Origin: Escherichia coli
Lineage (GTDB): Bacteria > Pseudomonadota > Gammaproteobacteria > Enterobacterales > Enterobacteriaceae
Strand: one strand, 5' to 3'
Length of the DNA stretch: 5,716 nucleotides
Assembly: GCF_013315695.1 (NCBI RefSeq)
Contig: NZ_CP054357.1
This document shows, one piece after another, positions 1-5,716 of the stretch (position 1 is the first letter of the stretch; each line of letters begins with the position of its first letter). The position numbers and the translations under genes are program-made. The notes beneath the pieces are model-generated. The model had not been told where the DNA came from, did no database searches, and saw nothing but the letters and a program-made list of their open reading frames with translations.

Positions 1-423
1 ACTATCGTCATGGCAATATCTCTTTTCGCGTTATCCTCAACATCCAGCACAGAACAACATTTTCACATTATAAAAATATTCGGTGGAGGCTATTTAATAT
101 ACATAGGATTAATGGGTTTAATTAATAAAAAAAACAAACAAAGAAAAGAGCAAAAACCTTTTTTGATACCATTATTAAACCCCAAGGCGTATCTTTTCTT
201 TGCTGCGTTAATACCAACCTTTATAGATAATAATACAAATATCACATTAAACTTTTTTATATTGGGTGTTTTATTTATATTTATATCATTCCTAACAGAT
301 CTTATTTACATAGCTATTAGCTTAACGATAAGGGATAAATTGACGCCATCATTCTCAAGATACATAAGCATATGTAGTTCCATTTTTATATTAGGTACAG
401 GTATTTATTTTATTTTTACGTGA
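1..423 (+). CDS. LysE/RhtB-family exporter, C-terminal ~140 codons; the frame is open from base 1, so the 5' end lies outside the linear window (it continues from 5567..5716 if the molecule is circular)
   Basis: The frame is open from position 1 (ACT ATC GTC ATG..), so the ATG at 10 is internal. The translation is highly hydrophobic with several predicted TM segments and the motif NPKAYLFFAALIPTFI, matching the conserved NPK..FL.ALFPQF region of RhtB/LysE-type translocators as I recall it. Stop TGA at 421-423. AT-rich codon usage. Confidence 0.75.
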   Translation, partial: TIVMAISLFALSSTSSTEQHFHIIKIFGGGYLIYIGLMGLINKKNKQRKEQKPFLIPLLNPKAYLFFAALIPTFIDNNTNITLNFFILGVLFIFISFLTDLIYIAISLTIRDKLTPSFSRYISICSSIFILGTGIYFIFT

Positions 424-437
424 AACGCCGTTTTTAT

Positions 438-471
438 ACTCATGCAGCCTTAGTCATAAGACGGCATGAGT
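438..471. terminator. Intergenic hairpin between convergent genes (possible weak bidirectional terminator)
   Basis: 8-bp inverted repeat ACTCATGC (438-445) / GCATGAGT (464-471) with an 18-nt loop, in the 57-bp gap between the exporter stop (423) and the stop of the minus-strand 238-aa ORF (481). A short T-run (431-435) lies upstream but there is no strong U-tract after the stem on either strand. Confidence 0.3.
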
Positions 472-480
472 TACTTAACA

Positions 481-1197
481 CTATTTCAGTATGGCATATT
501 TTTTATTTGGTGATTGTTCATTAAAATAATATCCGCTTTCGTCATCAACTAACACGCATGCTTTACGATAATCTCCACACTTCGAGAACTCGGCCAATGG
601 AGCTTTTTCTTTCCATTCTTTTAACATGGATTCATGTTTTTTCTGTTCTTCCATTAGCGAACTAATATTCATTTTGAGATATTCAGCATAGAAAACAGGA
701 GCGATCATTAGCAATAAAAATAATACAATCAACACAATTACCTTTTCGACAATCCTTGTTACTGTATACTTCTCCATTGTTTTTCTAATTATACCTGTCG
801 CAACTTCGGCCTCTCTGGTCGTCTGCTTTAATGATTCCTTTATCTCTTTACTTGTTTGCTCCTCGAAATCAACCCACTCTTTCTTTACATCATTGAGAGT
901 GAAAGATAATTTTTCGCGGAGTAATGACGTTAGTGTATCTGAGACTGATTTCTGTAATTTACAAGATGCCTCATCCATTCCTTTATTAATATAAAATTTA
1001 ACATTAGACACACTATCCCTAAAGGAATAAGAAATTCCAGAAACAACTTTACCTTCACGTTCAAGAGTACTTGTAAAGGTATTTAAGTCATTCACTCTTT
1101 CATTAAGCAGAGTAATTAGCCTGTTCATTTCTTTTATTTGTTTATCATTATACGCAACAAGAGCAGCAATTTTTCTTGAATGTTCATCCAATTGCAT
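481..1197 (-). CDS. Hypothetical membrane protein, 238 aa: N-terminal coiled-coil-like region, one TM helix, small Cys-containing C-terminal domain
   Basis: ORF with a GGAGG Shine-Dalgarno 9 nt upstream of the ATG at 1197, only 20 nt after the mobA stop. The N-terminal ~150 aa are rich in K/E/L/I with heptad-like spacing; one strongly hydrophobic segment (VIVLIVLFLLLMIAPVFYAEYL); the C-terminal ~60 aa contain CGDYRKAC. Clearly more AT-rich than adjacent mobA. I recognise no family. Confidence 0.7.
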   Translation of the reverse strand: MQLDEHSRKIAALVAYNDKQIKEMNRLITLLNERVNDLNTFTSTLEREGKVVSGISYSFRDSVSNVKFYINKGMDEASCKLQKSVSDTLTSLLREKLSFTLNDVKKEWVDFEEQTSKEIKESLKQTTREAEVATGIIRKTMEKYTVTRIVEKVIVLIVLFLLLMIAPVFYAEYLKMNISSLMEEQKKHESMLKEWKEKAPLAEFSKCGDYRKACVLVDDESGYYFNEQSPNKKYAILK

Positions 1198-1217
1198 AAA
1201 ATAAAAACCTCCAGTGC

Positions 1218-2303
1218 TTAACGGCTCATACCATAATCACGTGAACGTGATGGTGCTGGTGAGGAATACGCACGCTGGCGCACTCTTTCTCTTTCCCTCT
1301 CCAGGTCTCTTTGCTTTTCGGCTTCAATTAGTCGTTCCTGTTGCAACTTCCGCTCCTCTTCCACCTGGAATTGCTTCATCATTGAGTCCAGCGCACCGTT
1401 AATCAATGAATTAAGCTGCATTACCTCATTGAGTTCATCAAACGAGCTTTCAACAAACGCCTTCAATTCTGCCCCAAGCTCATCCAGGCTTGGTGGTATG
1501 TTATCCCGTTCAGCTAACGCTTCCTTCAAGGTCGTTTTAAGGTCAATGATGCTGTCCCGTTCCTGCTCTGCTTCTAGCTTCTCCCGTTCCGCGTTTCTCC
1601 GTGCCAGAATTGCACAAACCTGATCAGCATTCATAACAGCAACACGAACGGGACCAAGATGAACTTCCGGTGTGCGCTTGATACCCTGTTCTTTCAGTGA
1701 ACGATGATCAACGCGCGACTGATGGCCGTGCCGCGCAAGGTGTTCATTCTGCACATCAGCCCAGTGAGAACGTAGCGCAACCAAGGCTGATTTTCGCTCT
1801 TGTGGTGTCTCACCAAAGCGTGCCTTTTTTGCACCTCCCCGCTCCGGTGATTTGCTGTTGGCACGTTTAAAAAACTGCTGCGGATCGCGTTCAATACCAT
1901 CATTAATCCGCTCGCAAAACATGATATGTGCGTGTGGTTGTTCCTTTCCGTCGATTGCACCTGGCGGATTGTGGATCGCGTACTGATAGGCATGGCGATC
2001 ACCAAGCTCCTTTTGCACGAAATCTTCAACAAGTTCTATCCGTTGTTCGCGTGTCAGTTCTCGCGGTAATGCGATCTCAATTTCACGGTATGCCGTCCCG
2101 TTTTTTCGTTCAAATTCATCTGCTGCTTTCCATAGCTCTGCGGGATTTTTCTTCGCCCATGATGGCATGTTACCGGATGACGAAAATTCCAGATCCTCCC
2201 GCGATTTGTAGTTCTTATATTCGCCGGATCTAGAAATATAATCAGCATGTTTTAAGGCTACGCCTTTTGCTCCAGTTTTAACTGTACAATGGTAGCTTGC
2301 CAT
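1218..2303 (-). CDS. mobA: MobA relaxase, MOBQ family (RSF1010 MobA-like relaxase domain only, 361 aa)
   Basis: The N-terminus MASYHCTVKTGAKG...HADYISRSGEY parallels RSF1010 MobA (MAIYHLTAKTG...KADYIQREGKY, catalytic Tyr in the ADYI motif). It also carries EIEIALPREL and the histidine motif HAHIMFCERINDGIERDPQQFFKR (RSF1010: HCHLMISERINDGIERPAAQWFKR), then VDHRSLKEQGIKRTPEVHLGP. The C-terminus is ER-rich low complexity. Comparison is from memory of the RSF1010 sequence. Confidence 0.9.
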   Translation of the reverse strand: MASYHCTVKTGAKGVALKHADYISRSGEYKNYKSREDLEFSSSGNMPSWAKKNPAELWKAADEFERKNGTAYREIEIALPRELTREQRIELVEDFVQKELGDRHAYQYAIHNPPGAIDGKEQPHAHIMFCERINDGIERDPQQFFKRANSKSPERGGAKKARFGETPQERKSALVALRSHWADVQNEHLARHGHQSRVDHRSLKEQGIKRTPEVHLGPVRVAVMNADQVCAILARRNAEREKLEAEQERDSIIDLKTTLKEALAERDNIPPSLDELGAELKAFVESSFDELNEVMQLNSLINGALDSMMKQFQVEEERKLQQERLIEAEKQRDLERERERVRQRAYSSPAPSRSRDYGMSR

Positions 2304-2333
2304 CTGCCGTTAAGCCCTCCGCAGGAGCGCACT

Positions 2334-2387
2334 GTTTCTCGACGAAGGAGAGAAACGTCTAAGTGCGCATCCCTGAATTAATCAGGG
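2334..2387 (+). other. oriT: oriT (origin of transfer) with RSF1010-type nic region; predicted nick between 2367 and 2368 on the + strand
   Basis: Inverted repeat GTTTCTC (2334-2340) / GAGAAAC (2350-2356) followed by TAAGTGCGC (2361-2369). RSF1010 oriT, as I recall it, has GTTTCTCGAAGAGAAAC then GGTAAGTGCG^CCCT. A second small palindrome CCCTGA-ATTAA-TCAGGG follows at 2371-2387. It lies between divergent mobA and mobC, as in RSF1010. Confidence 0.7.
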
Positions 2388-2421
2388 ATGATTTTAAGGT
2401 CTCACACGCAGGCAGACAAGG

Positions 2422-2430
2422 TGATATTAT
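2422..2430 (+). promoter_or_regulatory. Putative extended -10 element (TGaTATTAT) for the mobC transcript
   Basis: TG at 2422-2423 followed by TATTAT at 2425-2430, about 45 nt upstream of the mobC start; no good -35 hexamer is seen. Sequence-pattern inference only. Confidence 0.3.
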
Positions 2431-2474
2431 GCACAATAACAACTCACATTAACGGCAAAAGTGCAGAGGTAAGA

Positions 2475-2921
2475 ATGACAAATCGTGAAGAGTGGTTAAG
2501 TGCAAAAATTGCCTATATCAACGGACTGAAATCACCGTCAGAGCAGCAAAGATTACTTGTGTTACTGGCAGAGAAAAAAAACCGAACAACGACGGATGAA
2601 AAAACGTTGTCCGCACTGATACGGGCAGAAAAAACCGCAGAGAAAGCAGCCGCAGCAAAAGCCAGGGTAACGGCAATAATAGCGGCAGAACGGAAGGCAG
2701 CCGCAAGGGCGGAACGAAAGGCGCGGGATCATGAACTCTACAAGGCCGCAGGCCTCATGATTGTGGCAGGACTGGTGGACAGCAAAACCGGAAAACCAAA
2801 GTTTAGTGCTGCCGAACTGGTAGGCGCACTCGCAGGAATCGCAGAGCTACCGCGCAACCATCCAAAATGGCAGGAATGGGAAAAACGCGGGAAAGAGCTA
2901 CTCACCAAAGACAGTGCGTAA
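2475..2921 (+). CDS. mobC: MobC / TraD-like relaxosome accessory protein (148 aa from the ATG at 2475)
   Basis: Divergent from mobA across oriT. SD GAGGT sits 4 nt upstream of the ATG at 2475. An Ala/Lys/Arg/Glu-rich helical region (AEKAAAAKARVTAIIAAERKAAARAERKARDHE) is followed by a hydrophobic stretch (LYKAAGLMIVAGLVD), which resembles the RSF1010 MobC pattern (..ERKNETRRKVLVGAMILAKV..) from memory. The upstream in-frame ATG at 2388 lies inside the oriT palindrome and lacks a convincing SD. Confidence 0.7.
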   Translation: MTNREEWLSAKIAYINGLKSPSEQQRLLVLLAEKKNRTTTDEKTLSALIRAEKTAEKAAAAKARVTAIIAAERKAAARAERKARDHELYKAAGLMIVAGLVDSKTGKPKFSAAELVGALAGIAELPRNHPKWQEWEKRGKELLTKDSA

Positions 2922-2949
2922 GAGCCTCCGTTCACGTTCCGGTTCCCTG

Positions 2950-3003
2950 GTGCTTCCTCGCTCATTCGCTCGCTACGCTCGGTCATTGAGACTGCGGCGA
3001 GCA
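2950..3003. other. ssi / primosome-assembly-site-like element (ColE1 PAS-like)
   Basis: TGCTTCCTCGCTCATTCGCTCGCTACGCTCGGTCATTGAGACTGCGGCGAGC closely resembles the ColE1/pBR322 segment GCTTCCTCGCTCACTGACTCGCTGCGCTCGGTCGTTCGGCTGCGGCGAGC (from memory), which lies in the ColE1 primosome assembly region. Its function here is inferred. Confidence 0.45.
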
Positions 3004-3078
3004 CAACCACCACTCACACACAGACGCTAAAACCATTGCCAAACGAAACACGGGAAATCACCCCAAACCTACCCGCTC

Positions 3079-3097
3079 AAAAAAACGCCTACAGGCG
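3079..3097 (-). terminator. Short hairpin plus T7 run just beyond the ori (possible rep transcript terminator)
   Basis: The minus strand reads CGCCTGTAGGCG followed by TTTTTTT (plus-strand A-run 3079-3085). The stem is only 4 bp, so this is weak. Confidence 0.3.
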
Positions 3098-3130
3098 CTG
3101 TTATCTGATAAGGCTTGTTATCTGGTCTCA
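3090..3130 (-). other. ori: ColE2-type replication origin (Rep binding and priming site) immediately 3' of rep
   Basis: The minus strand reads AAAATGAGACCAGATAACAAGCCTTATCAGATAACAGCGCCTGT, with CAGATAACA repeated. This matches my recollection of the ColE2-P9 minimal origin (TGAGACCAGATAAGCCTTATCAGATAACAGCGCC). The rep stop codon TGA (3128-3130) is the first triplet of this element. Confidence 0.7.
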
Positions 3131-4057
3131 TTTTGCGAGATCTGGATCACATTTTAGTTTTCGATAGTATGTGGCACGACTGATCCCTAACGTCACCCAC
3201 GGCTTCAGAGTTCGTGCCGATGTGGCAACGGCTACACGCTTTGATTTCTGACCTTTAATAGCCTGATTTTCTGATGAATTTGCATTACCGCCCTTACGAC
3301 CTCGAGCAGCCTGTACCGCGGAAAAGCCTTCAGGAGAGAATTTGCGGTAGGTGTATTTCGCAATACTCTTGCCAATAGCCCGACATTCAGCCGGAGAAAG
3401 CGGAACGGGAAGCGATGCGTTGTACATTTCGACACGCTGAATCACTGCATCAAGCCACGGTGAGAATGCTGGCCAGCCCTGACGAATCGCCCTGTAAGAC
3501 CATTTACGGCCCTTTTCGAACAGATACCAGTTTCGCCCCATCCCGTAATCTTTATCGACGCGACGGCGCGCTGAGGCGCTCAAATCAAGATAATCCGCCA
3601 GTTCGTCGAGGGTATAGAGTTCCCAACGCCATTCCACCACCTGCCATTCCTGGTGGAACGGATTTTTGCAGATCAGGCCGCTGTAGTTCACATCCGCGCC
3701 CAGTTTTTCACACAGCGCACGCTCAATCACGGCAGCGTATTTGAGCGCCGAAGCCGATGCATCCGGCGCGGTTCTCACCGGAAGAGTGAGCGCGTAGAGC
3801 AGATGCGCGTGCCCGTTACGTGGATTTTTTACGGTGATGTTCGGGGCCGGACAGTTCCGGTCGCTCCAGTCGATCGCTGCCCCCGTCCGGTCAACGTCAA
3901 AGGCCAGCCAGTGCTGCGCATGTGGCTGGTTCTGCTGGATGAAACGGGCAAGGATGGCGATATCTTTCGGTAGAATGCGAACGCCGTACGTGAAATCGTT
4001 CGTACAGTACGGTTTGTGCGGTAATTTTTCCCTGAAGAGTTGAAGTACGGCGCTCAT
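3128..4057 (-). CDS. rep: ColE2/ColE3-family replication initiator Rep (plasmid-specific primase), 309 aa
   Basis: Translation MSAVLQLFREKLPHKPYCTNDFTYGVRILPKDIAILARFIQQNQPHAQHWLAFDVDRTGAAIDWSDRNCPAPNITVKNPRNGHAHLLYAL... is near-identical over long stretches to ColE2-P9 Rep as I remember it. GGAGG sits 12 nt upstream of the ATG, and the cognate ori-like sequence lies directly downstream. Confidence 0.9.
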   Translation of the reverse strand: MSAVLQLFREKLPHKPYCTNDFTYGVRILPKDIAILARFIQQNQPHAQHWLAFDVDRTGAAIDWSDRNCPAPNITVKNPRNGHAHLLYALTLPVRTAPDASASALKYAAVIERALCEKLGADVNYSGLICKNPFHQEWQVVEWRWELYTLDELADYLDLSASARRRVDKDYGMGRNWYLFEKGRKWSYRAIRQGWPAFSPWLDAVIQRVEMYNASLPVPLSPAECRAIGKSIAKYTYRKFSPEGFSAVQAARGRKGGNANSSENQAIKGQKSKRVAVATSARTLKPWVTLGISRATYYRKLKCDPDLAK

Positions 4058-4155
4058 GTGTTAGGATTTCCTCCGTGTGTTACGACCCACACGCCCCTTG
4101 AATTTTCGTGACAGTCTTGGCGGATCGGCACGAATTTCAGGGGCGTTTGTTTTTC
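4040..4155 (+). ncRNA. Candidate antisense RNA I (copy-number control RNA complementary to the rep mRNA leader); boundaries approximate
   Basis: Plus-strand promoter-like elements TTGAAG (4040-4045), 16-nt spacer, TAGGAT (4062-4067), overlapping the rep start codon. A long imperfect hairpin plus T-run ends at about 4155. ColE2 replicons are known to use an antisense RNA of about 115 nt against the rep leader. With this promoter the transcript would be about 80 nt, so the true 5' end is uncertain. Confidence 0.45.
4094..4155 (+). terminator. Rho-independent terminator-like hairpin plus T-run (3' end of candidate RNA I; same structure in complement forms the rep leader stem-loop)
   Basis: Left arm CCCCTTGAATTTTCGTG (4094-4110), right arm CACGAATTTCAGGGG (4129-4143), imperfect with one or two bulges and an 18-nt loop, followed by CGTTTGTTTTTC (4144-4155). 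Confidence 0.5.
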
Positions 4156-4163
4156 AGTTGGTT

Positions 4164-4192
4164 ACACTACACCCAACGGCAAATCCTGTCGA
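4164..4192 (-). promoter_or_regulatory. Putative rep promoter (minus strand: -35 TCGACA, 17-nt spacer, -10 TAGTGT)
   Basis: Reverse complement of 4187-4192 is TCGACA and of 4164-4169 is TAGTGT, separated by 17 nt. The predicted start near 4157 would give a ~100-nt rep leader fully covered by the candidate RNA I. Pattern-based only. Confidence 0.3.
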
Positions 4193-4213
4193 TCCTTCCC
4201 GAAAACCAGACCC

Positions 4214-4241
4214 ATTTACCATAACTCCTCTTGTACGTACC
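4214..4241 (-). other. XerC/XerD core recombination site (cer/psi-like multimer resolution site)
   Basis: The minus strand reads GGTACGTACAA-GAGGAG-TTATGGTAAAT. The XerD arm is identical to ColE1 cer (TTATGGTAAAT) and the XerC arm differs from cer (GGTGCGTACAA) at one position; the central region is 6 bp, as in dif and psi rather than cer's 8 bp. Accessory sequences would extend to about 4430 on the XerC side. Confidence 0.65.
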
Positions 4242-4342
4242 CTCTAAAACGCTCTCAATCGCTTTCTGACGCAAAAAACTCAAAAAGACAAGATAAACCT
4301 AGGGAAAACACAAAAAACGCGTCAGAATCGTTTTTAGGGGTC

Positions 4343-4356
4343 TGCATAACTATGCA
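4343..4356. promoter_or_regulatory. Perfect palindrome TGCATA-AC-TATGCA: candidate ARG box (ArgR accessory site) for the cer-like site
   Basis: 14-bp perfect palindrome about 120 bp from the XerCD core on the XerC side. It resembles the ARG-box half-sites (TGAAT....ATTCA) with an A-to-C substitution; cer-type sites require ArgR and PepA binding about 100 bp from the core. Confidence 0.35.
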
Positions 4357-4481
4357 CAAAAGCGATTAATGATCGGTTTCACCCCTTCAGAAGCGCGAAC
4401 TGGTCAAAACAGCAAACTTTCTCATCCAGAAAGCCAGCTGAACTAACCCGCATGAAAACAAATTTCCAAACATATCCAGTC

Positions 4482-4508
4482 TGGACAACGAAATATCGAC
4501 AATATAAA
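4482..4508 (+). promoter_or_regulatory. Putative sigma70 promoter for the cargo operon (-35 TGGACA, 15-nt spacer, -10 TATAAA)
   Basis: TGGACA at 4482-4487 and TATAAA at 4503-4508, about 100 nt upstream of the ATG at 4610. The spacer is short; pattern-based only. Confidence 0.3.
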
Positions 4509-4609
4509 ACATCATAATCGTGTTTATGGCGTGTAAAAAAGCTTACAAGAGAATTAGCATTGAAGAGTCATAACAACAAATTCCAAAAATCAAACCAGAG
4601 GATAGGAAA

Positions 4610-5560
4610 ATGAATAATTTTATAAATGAATGTATTTCCGCTCCGAGAATAAACGGCATGGCAGAATTTTTCTCATCAACTGCATCAGGGGAAAAACACA
4701 AACCTTTTAGACTAGTAGAAATAGATGATCGGCTTTTTCATTCTTATGATTACATTAAGTTTGCCAAACACCTCACAAAAAACAGCGGCCCTTTCGTTAA
4801 TCATTATTTTTGCAGTATACCATACAGCAAGGAAGAAGAGTGCAGATTAGGAACAACAGTAATAAAATACGCAATCACGCTAAACAAAAAATTAAACACA
4901 TGGTGTCTTGGTATGGCTGAGGGCGCAATGGCAAGAACCATTTCAGAATTATCAAAAGGAAACATACAAACATTAACAACCAGTCCAACAAAAGAAAATG
5001 AACATGCATTTTTTAAGTATAGCTCAAGTGAAAACGCTTATTTTATTTGCACTCCATTTTTCCTGTTAGAGGAAAGACTAAAAAATTCAAATCTTAAACA
5101 ATTTAATCAAGGATTCGATATTATAATAGAAGACACCACATTTCAAATGTACTCACCTAACAGATCTGGGCAAATAAACCACGTAAAAAGGCTATTAAAT
5201 AATGATGGTATTTTCATATTTACAGAAAAACATAGTTCAGAACATGATGAATATCAAAAAAGAGAAATCCAAAAAGATTATTCATTCAAACAAAGGTATT
5301 TCTCGAAAGATGAGATTAACACCAAAAAGGAAATCGTACTAAACACAATGAATTTGAATGAAGTTAGTGTTGACGATATGCTTTCCGCAATTAAACAACA
5401 TTTTAAATACGCATCAATATATTGGAATAGCGGAAATTTTTACTCAATCGCCGCCAGCAATTCACTAAAACACATATCAACATTTATAAATTTATTACCG
5501 AAAGCTGCAATTCCTATGGAATATGTATATGAAAAGCTCCCACGAAATATATCATGGTAA
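4610..5560 (+). CDS. Hypothetical protein, 316 aa; possible class I SAM-dependent methyltransferase-like Rossmann core (tentative)
   Basis: SD AGAGGA 7 nt upstream of the ATG; AT-rich. The central region has MTase-like motif spacing: LGMAEGAMARTI (glycine-rich, motif I-like), then about 65 aa later FDIIIEDTTF (motif II-like), then VKRLLNNDGIFIFTE (motif III-like). No canonical GxGxG and no (D/N/S)PP(Y/F) DNA-MTase motif. Stop TAA at 5558-5560. Confidence 0.75.
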   Translation: MNNFINECISAPRINGMAEFFSSTASGEKHKPFRLVEIDDRLFHSYDYIKFAKHLTKNSGPFVNHYFCSIPYSKEEECRLGTTVIKYAITLNKKLNTWCLGMAEGAMARTISELSKGNIQTLTTSPTKENEHAFFKYSSSENAYFICTPFFLLEERLKNSNLKQFNQGFDIIIEDTTFQMYSPNRSGQINHVKRLLNNDGIFIFTEKHSSEHDEYQKREIQKDYSFKQRYFSKDEINTKKEIVLNTMNLNEVSVDDMLSAIKQHFKYASIYWNSGNFYSIAASNSLKHISTFINLLPKAAIPMEYVYEKLPRNISW

Positions 5561-5566
5561 GTAAAC

Positions 5567-5716
5567 ATGGAATATTCAACATTATTATCATTTGCTATCG
5601 TAACCTTATCGCAAACTATATCAATAGGGCCTGGCGTTGCATTGGTTATAAACAATGCCTTTTCACATGGATTAAAGTCATCAATAAAAACAAGTATATA
5701 CATAAGAATTGGCGAG
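5567..5716 (+). CDS. LysE/RhtB-family exporter, N-terminal 50 codons; 3' end runs off the window (continues at 1..423 if circular)
   Basis: ATG at 5567, 6 nt after the stop of the 316-aa gene. MEYSTLLSFAIVTLSQTISIGPGVALVINNAFSHGLKSSIKTSIYIRIGE has the hydrophobic N-terminus and S-x-GPG motif typical of LysE/RhtB translocators (RhtB: ..[20 protein letters not shown]..). There is no stop before the window end, and the window ends exactly on a codon boundary. Confidence 0.75.
   Translation, partial: MEYSTLLSFAIVTLSQTISIGPGVALVINNAFSHGLKSSIKTSIYIRIGE

Follow-up and report, generated by a model that had tools for sequence, protein, structure and literature searches.

A probable cer-type XerCD multimer-resolution site with a 6-bp central region upstream of rep in a ColE2-type plasmid of Escherichia coli

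The window analyzed here is the whole of a circular 5,716-bp plasmid from Escherichia coli, and the DNA from about 4214 to 4400 on its minus strand is very probably a multimer-resolution site of the ColE2/ColE3 plasmid type, that is, a cer-type site at which XerCD would act in dependence on ArgR and PepA. The cer-type reading is preferred because the core, the gapless homology of the accessory sequence, the fixed spacing and the conserved synteny agree. The dependence on XerC, XerD, ArgR and PepA is predicted entirely by homology. A first-pass annotation had proposed a multimer-resolution site with an ARG box in this region, and homology, invariant spacing and synteny all point in the same direction. 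The site is an ordinary, unannotated member of the ColE2/ColE3 branch of cer-type sites.

Results

Over its full length the window was 100% identical to 5,716-bp plasmids from E. coli and Salmonella (including CP056318.1, NZ_CP082933.1 and NZ_CP124378.1), and the plasmid is a mobilizable plasmid of the ColE2 type from E. coli and Salmonella. Its features are listed in Table 1. The replicon module is that of a ColE2-type plasmid, with a PF03090 Rep and with the Xer site located upstream of the rep promoter and leader, and the other open reading frames encode a MobA/MobL relaxase, a TraD-like protein, a LysE-family translocator and two products without a firm assignment. No recombinase domain was detected among the ORFs of the plasmid by Pfam and ORF analysis of the whole window, and at 5,716 bp this is a small plasmid without a resolvase of its own. 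The Xer site carries no annotation in any of the matching GenBank/RefSeq records examined; with the site named, a common family of small enterobacterial plasmids would be better annotated.

Two further observations concern the remainder of the plasmid. The cargo pair, which consists of the 316-aa ORF and the LysE-family translocator, is low in G+C and is also present in a 185-kb plasmid (L093) that is described below. Directly after the rep stop codon, the minus strand carries AAAATGAGACCAGATAACAAGCCTTATCAGATAACAGCGCC (window 3090-3127), which we take to resemble the minimal ColE2 origin.

Table 1. Positions of the features discussed in the text within the 5,716-bp window.
Feature	Position	Strand	Basis or remark
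rep, ColE2-type replication initiator	3128..4057	minus	Pfam PF03090 Replicase family, E = 6e-42; directly downstream of the Xer site
Stem-loop followed by a T run	4095..4155	plus	Antisense to the rep leader; weak sub-threshold Rfam PK-repBA match; kept in relatives
Candidate rep promoter, TCGACA-N17-TAGTGT	4164..4192	minus	Inferred; both hexamers invariant in 14/14 aligned ColE2-type sequences
XerD-binding arm, TTATGGTAAAT	4224..4214	minus	Read directly
Central (crossover) region, GAGGAG, 6 bp	4230..4225	minus	Read directly
XerC-binding arm, GGTACGTACAA	4241..4231	minus	Read directly
Accessory sequence, putative ArgR/PepA wrapping region	4242..4400	minus	Inferred; XerC side; gapless alignments
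Inverted repeat, downstream arm, GCGTCAGAA, 9 bp	4264..4272	minus	Read directly
Inverted repeat, upstream arm, TTCTGACGC, 9 bp	4319..4327	minus	Read directly
Hexamer TAAAAA	4331..4336	minus	Alignment A1 columns 21-26, aligned with TAAAAT of ColE1-type sites
ARG box, single, 18 bp	4341..4358	minus	Type and position as ArgR sites in PMC11724359 Suppl. 1
Cargo ORF, 316 aa	4610-5560	plus	Methyltransferase/spermine-synthase-like matches, all sub-threshold
LysE-family translocator	5577..423, across the window ends	plus	Second gene of the cargo pair

The cer-like core with a GAGGAG center was found exactly where it had first been placed, on the minus strand at 4241..4214. It has the composition of a cer-type core, in which an 11-bp XerC arm and an 11-bp XerD arm flank a central region of 6-8 bp. 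The 28-bp sequence differs at one position from GGTGCGYAYAA-N6-TTATGKTAAAT, no other match to this consensus occurs in the window when up to three mismatches are allowed, and no match was obtained in any of 200 shuffles. The XerD arm is the same as that of ColE1 cer, ColE3, ColA, CloDF13, NTP16 and mwr (PMC11724359 Suppl. 1), and the XerC arm is the cer arm GGTGCGTACAA with a G4>A change. An identical XerC arm occurs in the published list of xrs, for example in GGTACGTACAACGGGAGTTATGGTAAAT, and both arms are found among the 185 unique enterobacterial xrs published by Fournes et al. (PMC11724359). A comparison with other plasmid Xer sites had been suggested as a check on the core; the arms match published xrs, and the consensus mismatch is a single one. 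The exact core is missing from the published list, whose nearest entries are distinguished from it by 1-2 bases, all within the central region; an identical core was found in one sequence (L051) of the one-genome-per-species scan described below.

The second element of the site is a single putative ARG box on the XerC side of the core. Its 14-bp core at 4343-4356, TGCATAACTATGCA, reads TGCATAGTTATGCA on the minus strand and is separated from the XerC arm, at its outer edge, by 101 bp. The center-to-center distance to the core is 122 bp, in agreement with the earlier estimate of about 120 bp. The description of this element as a perfect 14-bp palindrome has to be corrected: TGCATA-AC-TATGCA is an imperfect 6-2-6 inverted repeat in which positions 7 and 8 (A and C) are not self-complementary, and no perfect 14-bp palindrome is present anywhere in the window. 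As a statistical signal the palindrome was rejected. Bare 6-2-6 repeats occur at the chance rate (2 in the window versus 1.5 ± 1.2 in shuffles), and in this AT-rich plasmid matches to the generic ARG consensus are common, the ARG box being one of seven window matches with three mismatches to the generic 18-bp consensus (2.5 expected). The significance of the putative ARG box would come solely from its type, TGCAT-N4-ATGCA as in the ARG boxes of the cer family, and from its exact position relative to the core. The distance from the start of the ARG box to the start of the XerD arm is 132 bp, which is equal to the distance in ColE1, ColA, CloDF13 and NTP16, so that TGCATAGTTATGCA occupies the accessory position defined for the ArgR site of cer-type sites.

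Either ArgR or ArcA had been suggested as the accessory protein. ArgR is in keeping with the ARG box at the expected position, whereas the proposal of ArcA did not hold, as no match to the ArcA box GTTAATTAAATGTTA was found in the whole window at up to three mismatches. Since there is no ArcA box, and since the position at which psi has its ArcA box is occupied by an ARG box, the site is assigned to the ArgR type.

The accessory sequence between and beyond these elements is related to those of known sites. The minus strand from 4366 to 4214 was aligned gaplessly to the accessory sequences of ColE3-CA38, NTP16, ColE1, ColA, CloDF13 and mwr (PMC11724359), with the best alignments being those to ColE3-CA38 and NTP16, and the ARG boxes, the T-rich middle, the GCGTTTTA block and the core were all in register. 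It was also aligned to 61 further sites (alignment A1). In the ColE2-type relatives the conservation reaches 44 bp past the ARG box, to about 4400, and the predicted functional site is therefore larger than 4214-4356 and includes the conserved accessory sequence up to that point. Cer-type sites have an accessory sequence of about 180 bp at the XerC arm, and a related sequence is found at this position here; PepA would be expected to bind to it. Helical phasing of AA/TT in this region had its peak at 9.5-10 bp against mononucleotide shuffles, which are a weak control, and no weight is placed on it.

The accessory region also contains a perfect 9-bp inverted repeat (4327..4319 and 4272..4264). 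As a helix common to the whole family this repeat was rejected, with 44% of cells paired, no more than in slid controls. Family-wide covariation was seen for a shifted long-range helix (A1 columns 34-46 with 87-99), with 70.6% of cells paired versus 39-49% in slid controls and a covariation score of 0.40 versus at most 0.19 in controls. The window retains 8 of the 13 pairs of this family helix and has the shifted, lineage-specific 9-bp repeat instead.

Homologues of the site were found by BLAST in 1,291 plasmid records, mainly those of small mobilizable plasmids, and in complete E. coli genomes all 52 of the 52 places were on plasmids, with none chromosomal. Fifteen homologues were fetched, and 12 of these have both the core and an ARG box, which starts 132 bp from the start of the XerD arm in 11 of the 12 and 131 bp from it in one. 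The central region was 6 bp in all of the fetched ColE2-type homologues and read CGGGAG, CAGGAG or GAGGAG. A colicin E2 plasmid (L005) is among them, as is pKPHS4 (NC_016840), which is 82% identical and whose site Fournes et al. (PMC11724359) had already included as an ArgR-type xrs. XerCD-type resolution sites have been described as frequent among ColE2-like plasmids (PMC2831885, citing Hiraga et al. 1994).

The order of site, promoter, leader and rep is conserved, and the site is located just upstream of rep in every ColE2-type relative. The candidate rep promoter lies 22 bp beyond the XerD arm and scored under the threshold in the promoter scan. The hairpin antisense to the rep leader gave the only Rfam match in the whole window, the sub-threshold match to PK-repBA. 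We take this hairpin (4095..4155) to be, probably, the 3′ (terminator) end of the ColE2-type copy-control RNA I.

Parts of the site were also seen in other plasmids. Two conjugative IncF plasmids, pPA45B (L008) and pUTI89 (L009), and about 400 others share the ColE2-type site together with the rep promoter and the beginning of the leader; the homology breaks inside the leader hairpin, and no rep is annotated downstream. These IncF-borne sites adjoin colicin/microcin immunity and ChaN/TonB genes, and they are the fossil of an integrated small plasmid. Two 3.1-kb MOBQ plasmids of Citrobacter and Shigella (L013 and L014) have the ARG box and the initial stretch, of about 45 bp, of the accessory sequence, with no recognizable core downstream.

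A scan of one genome per species (100,044 species) was performed with the pattern TGCAT-N4-ATGCA, followed by 105-135 bp and then TTATGGTAAAT. It returned 77 matches, 73 of them with a good XerC arm; these matches are not independent, many are on small contigs of non-enteric assemblies and are probably contaminants, and the pattern leaves out ARG boxes such as that of ColE1 itself (..ATTCA). Among these non-independent sites the central region was 6 bp in 52 of 73, 7 bp in 12 and 8 bp in 9. The site had been considered to belong to a slightly unusual class, and this was not borne out, as 6 bp is both the majority length in the scan and the rule in the ColE2/ColE3 lineage. For comparison, the Fournes list of 185 unique xrs contains 13 sites of 30 bp and 27 of 29 bp, the rest, with dif-like sites included, being 28 bp (PMC11724359).

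In the same scan, the ARG box and the XerD arm kept a constant distance from each other. The gap was 118 bp in 47 of the 52 sites with a 6-bp central region and in 12/12 of those with 7 bp, and it was 119 bp in 9/9 of those with 8 bp; overall, 118 bp was the mode (59/77 matches). Over the same interval of about 100 bp between the ARG box and the core, the mean column identity was just 70% (A1). The distance is held at 118-119 bp irrespective of the length of the spacer, while the intervening sequence is not. Sites with 7- or 8-bp spacers have a compensating 1-nucleotide deletion just upstream of the XerC arm (A1 columns 113 and 127-128), and therefore the ARG-to-XerD distance stays at 118-119 bp and it is the ARG-to-XerC distance that shifts. 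With its fixed ARG-to-XerD distance and with 6 bp as the usual spacer, the scan is a useful reference for cer-type sites.

The closest known counterpart is the cer-like site of ColE3-CA38 and of ColE2-related plasmids, for which the status of a characterized site rests on the supplement of Fournes et al. (PMC11724359). It belongs to the same lineage, its accessory sequence aligns base for base, and its ARG box is in the same place (TGAATAGTTATGCA versus TGCATAGTTATGCA). It also shares the 6-bp central region, the XerD arm and the position upstream of a ColE2-type rep. The differences are that the XerC arm of the window has A and not G at position 4, as in many relatives including L005, and that the central region is GAGGAG in the window and CGGGAG in ColE3. 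Identity to colicinogenic and Col156-type relatives is about 82-87%, and the present plasmid carries a LysE-family gene and an ORF of unknown function as cargo where the ColE2-related colicinogenic plasmids carry a colicin operon.

Other members of the ArgR/PepA type were also compared. ColE1 cer differs from the window by one base in the XerC arm and is identical in the XerD arm, and like the window it has one ARG box, at a distance of 132 bp from the XerD arm, and is flanked on the XerC side by an accessory sequence of about 180 bp. Unlike the window, it has an 8-bp central region (TTAAGGGA), a TAAAAT hexamer and the 70-nt Rcd RNA, and it is found in an RNA II replicon, whereas the window site is beside a rep gene. 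The sites of pJHCMW1 (mwr), CloDF13 (parB) and ColA are of the ArgR/PepA type and share with the window a central region of 6 bp and the TTATGGTAAAT arm, and the XerC arm of CloDF13 also has A at position 4; their accessory sequences, however, form a ColE1-like subgroup unlike that of the window. In addition, mwr has a weakened ARG box (CGCATACTATGCA), owing to which its resolution depends on osmolarity and supercoiling, whereas the ARG box of the window is of the common type.

Given the 6-bp central region, the site could be viewed as a dif-like site activated by FtsK, or as a psi-like site dependent on ArcA and PepA. FtsK-dependent recombination has been shown just for 28-bp xrs (PMC11724359). 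The psi site of pSC101 likewise combines a central region of 6 bp with accessory sequences that lie on the XerC side and depend on PepA, but it uses ArcA instead of ArgR. We consider either assignment extremely unlikely. The spacer had been described as one of dif/psi length; however, 6 bp is also the length in the characterized sites of ColA, ColE3, CloDF13 and pJHCMW1 (mwr), as well as in psi (PMC11724359 supplement), and it is found in the majority of ARG-box-linked sites. The XerD arm is the cer-type TTATGGTAAAT and not one of the dif and psi arms, TTATGTTAAAT and TTATGTTAAAC, the latter being that of psi. Moreover, accessory-dependent recombination is known at 28-, 29- and 30-bp xrs, and 28-bp xrs that lack an accessory sequence are nearly confined to large replicons (PMC11724359); the present 28-bp site has a full ArgR-type accessory sequence and resides on a 5.7-kb plasmid, a size at which the KOPS polarity expected of a replicon with a dif-type site has no meaning.

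In ColE1-type sites, alignment columns 21-26 contain the hexamer TAAAAT, which we take to be the -10 element of Pcer. This hexamer is present in just 12 of the 62 sites of A1. Together with the family-wide covariation of the long-range accessory helix and the fact that the site always adjoins an invariant candidate rep promoter, the example of ColE1 cer, which encodes the 70-nt Rcd RNA from Pcer (spacer 15 bp; PMC5935869), would favor a region that is mainly regulatory, either as a gene for an Rcd-like checkpoint RNA or in control of the rep promoter, with resolution as a secondary function. Such a role is highly improbable on the present data. The hexamer is TAAAAA in the window and TGAAAA in ColE3 and NTP16, as opposed to TAAAAT in ColE1, and no promoter-like site was found on either strand in a scan of 4000-4650. 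Neither of the terminator-like matches in the same interval falls within the Xer site. The RNA fold of 4326..4242 was no better than that of shuffles (z = -1.1), RNAalifold of the 62 sites gave no consensus structure except the ARG-box palindrome, which is forced by the search pattern, and a search of the whole window against Rfam at a permissive threshold returned nothing in the Xer site. With just 8 of the 13 family pairs kept, the window is also a poor example of the covarying helix. An internal Pcer driving Rcd, as in ColE1 cer in the strict sense, was not found in the window, and a Pcer- or Rcd-like promoter or stable RNA is not supported here. A regulatory function would in any case leave the intact Xer core unexplained.

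Two plasmids were found to carry hybrid Xer sites. The first, plasmid p2 of E. coli EC20 (L093; NZ_JBXRYH010000003.1, 185 kb), has a hybrid site at 6200-6227 and includes a 3,008-bp block with 99.7-100% identity to window positions 4214..5716 plus 1..1505. This block ends in GGTACGTACAA-AAGGGA-TTATGGTAAAT and is followed by the right flank and exc2 of ColE1-type plasmids, in which the intact site is GGTGCGTACAA-TTAAGGGA-TTATGGTAAAT with an 8-bp spacer. The junction is confined to a 7-bp interval, bounded by position 4 of the XerC arm on one side and by the central region on the other, in which XerC cuts. The same hybrid is present in NZ_CP146684.1. Its spacer, AAGGGA, equals the TTAAGGGA of cer minus TT, which is not produced by a simple cut-and-join at the XerC cleavage point; such an exchange would account for the L093 site only in part.

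The second is an IncF plasmid of Escherichia marmotae (L010; NZ_CP099346.1), which has two half-foreign cores at 1640-1668 and 2989-3022. In the first core, a ColE2-type accessory sequence and XerC arm are followed by a foreign spacer and XerD arm (ACAGATG-TTATGTTTAAT). In the second, the inner XerC arm, the spacer CGGGAG, the XerD arm and the rep leader are all of the ColE2 type. The 1.34-kb segment between the cores contains a hypothetical gene and a Phd/YefM-YoeB toxin-antitoxin pair. This arrangement is, circumstantially, what one would expect if a segment had integrated through an exchange where the XerC arm meets the spacer, and it looks like a small circular module integrated by Xer recombination, recalling the pdif modules of Acinetobacter.

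These hybrids bear on whether the site could be a decayed relic that is carried along with the rep module and is recombinationally inactive. Precedents for decay exist: L013 and L014 retain an ARG box without a core, about 400 IncF plasmids have the site beside a destroyed rep, and ArgR-type accessory sequences adjoin apparently inactive xrs in the Yersinia pPCP plasmids (PMC11724359). For the present site we find this very doubtful, as both arms are intact and identical to those of published xrs, the spacing is exactly modal, and the ARG box and core are invariant in the alignments while the DNA between them diverges. The hybrid junctions fall in the core, in DNA that is 99.7% identical to the present plasmid. 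On this circumstantial evidence, L093 and L010 are easier to reconcile with an active Xer substrate than with a relic.

Discussion

By analogy with characterized sites of the cer type, a mechanism for the present site can be proposed. In a plasmid dimer, PepA, together with ArgR at the ARG box, would wrap the two directly repeated accessory sequences around one another and trap three negative supercoil crossings. This synapse would form in cis only, and it would align the cores and license XerC to perform the first strand exchange where its arm meets the central region. Completion of the Holliday junction formed in this way may depend on XerD, as is the case at psi, or on processing independent of Xer, as is the case at cer and mwr, where the action of Xer stops at the Holliday junction (PMC2699498, PMC5357621, bioRxiv 10.64898/2026.02.23.706985, PMC11724359). 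The length of the spacer is no guide to the route of completion, because mwr also has 6 bp and yet is Xer-independent at this step. The products would be monomers, and the copy number and inheritance of this partition-less plasmid would be protected.

Because the L093 junction (formed with a cer that has an 8-bp spacer) and the L010 junctions fall inside the cores, it is possible, although we regard it as rather doubtful, that the 6-bp-spacer site is also a hot spot for Xer recombination between plasmids, by which small plasmids are fused to large ones and modules are captured. The pair of hybrids is the sole lead of wider interest in this analysis, as it hints at Xer fusion between plasmids whose spacers differ in length. 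More speculatively, occupancy of the core, 22 bp from the invariant rep promoter, could couple the dimer state of the plasmid to the synthesis of Rep.

Two longer records, which could be real multimers or artifacts of long-read assembly, look like trimers of the present or a related small plasmid: NZ_CP133872.1 (17,158 bp) contains three copies of the site, and AP027451.1 (15,396 bp) has it in three places.
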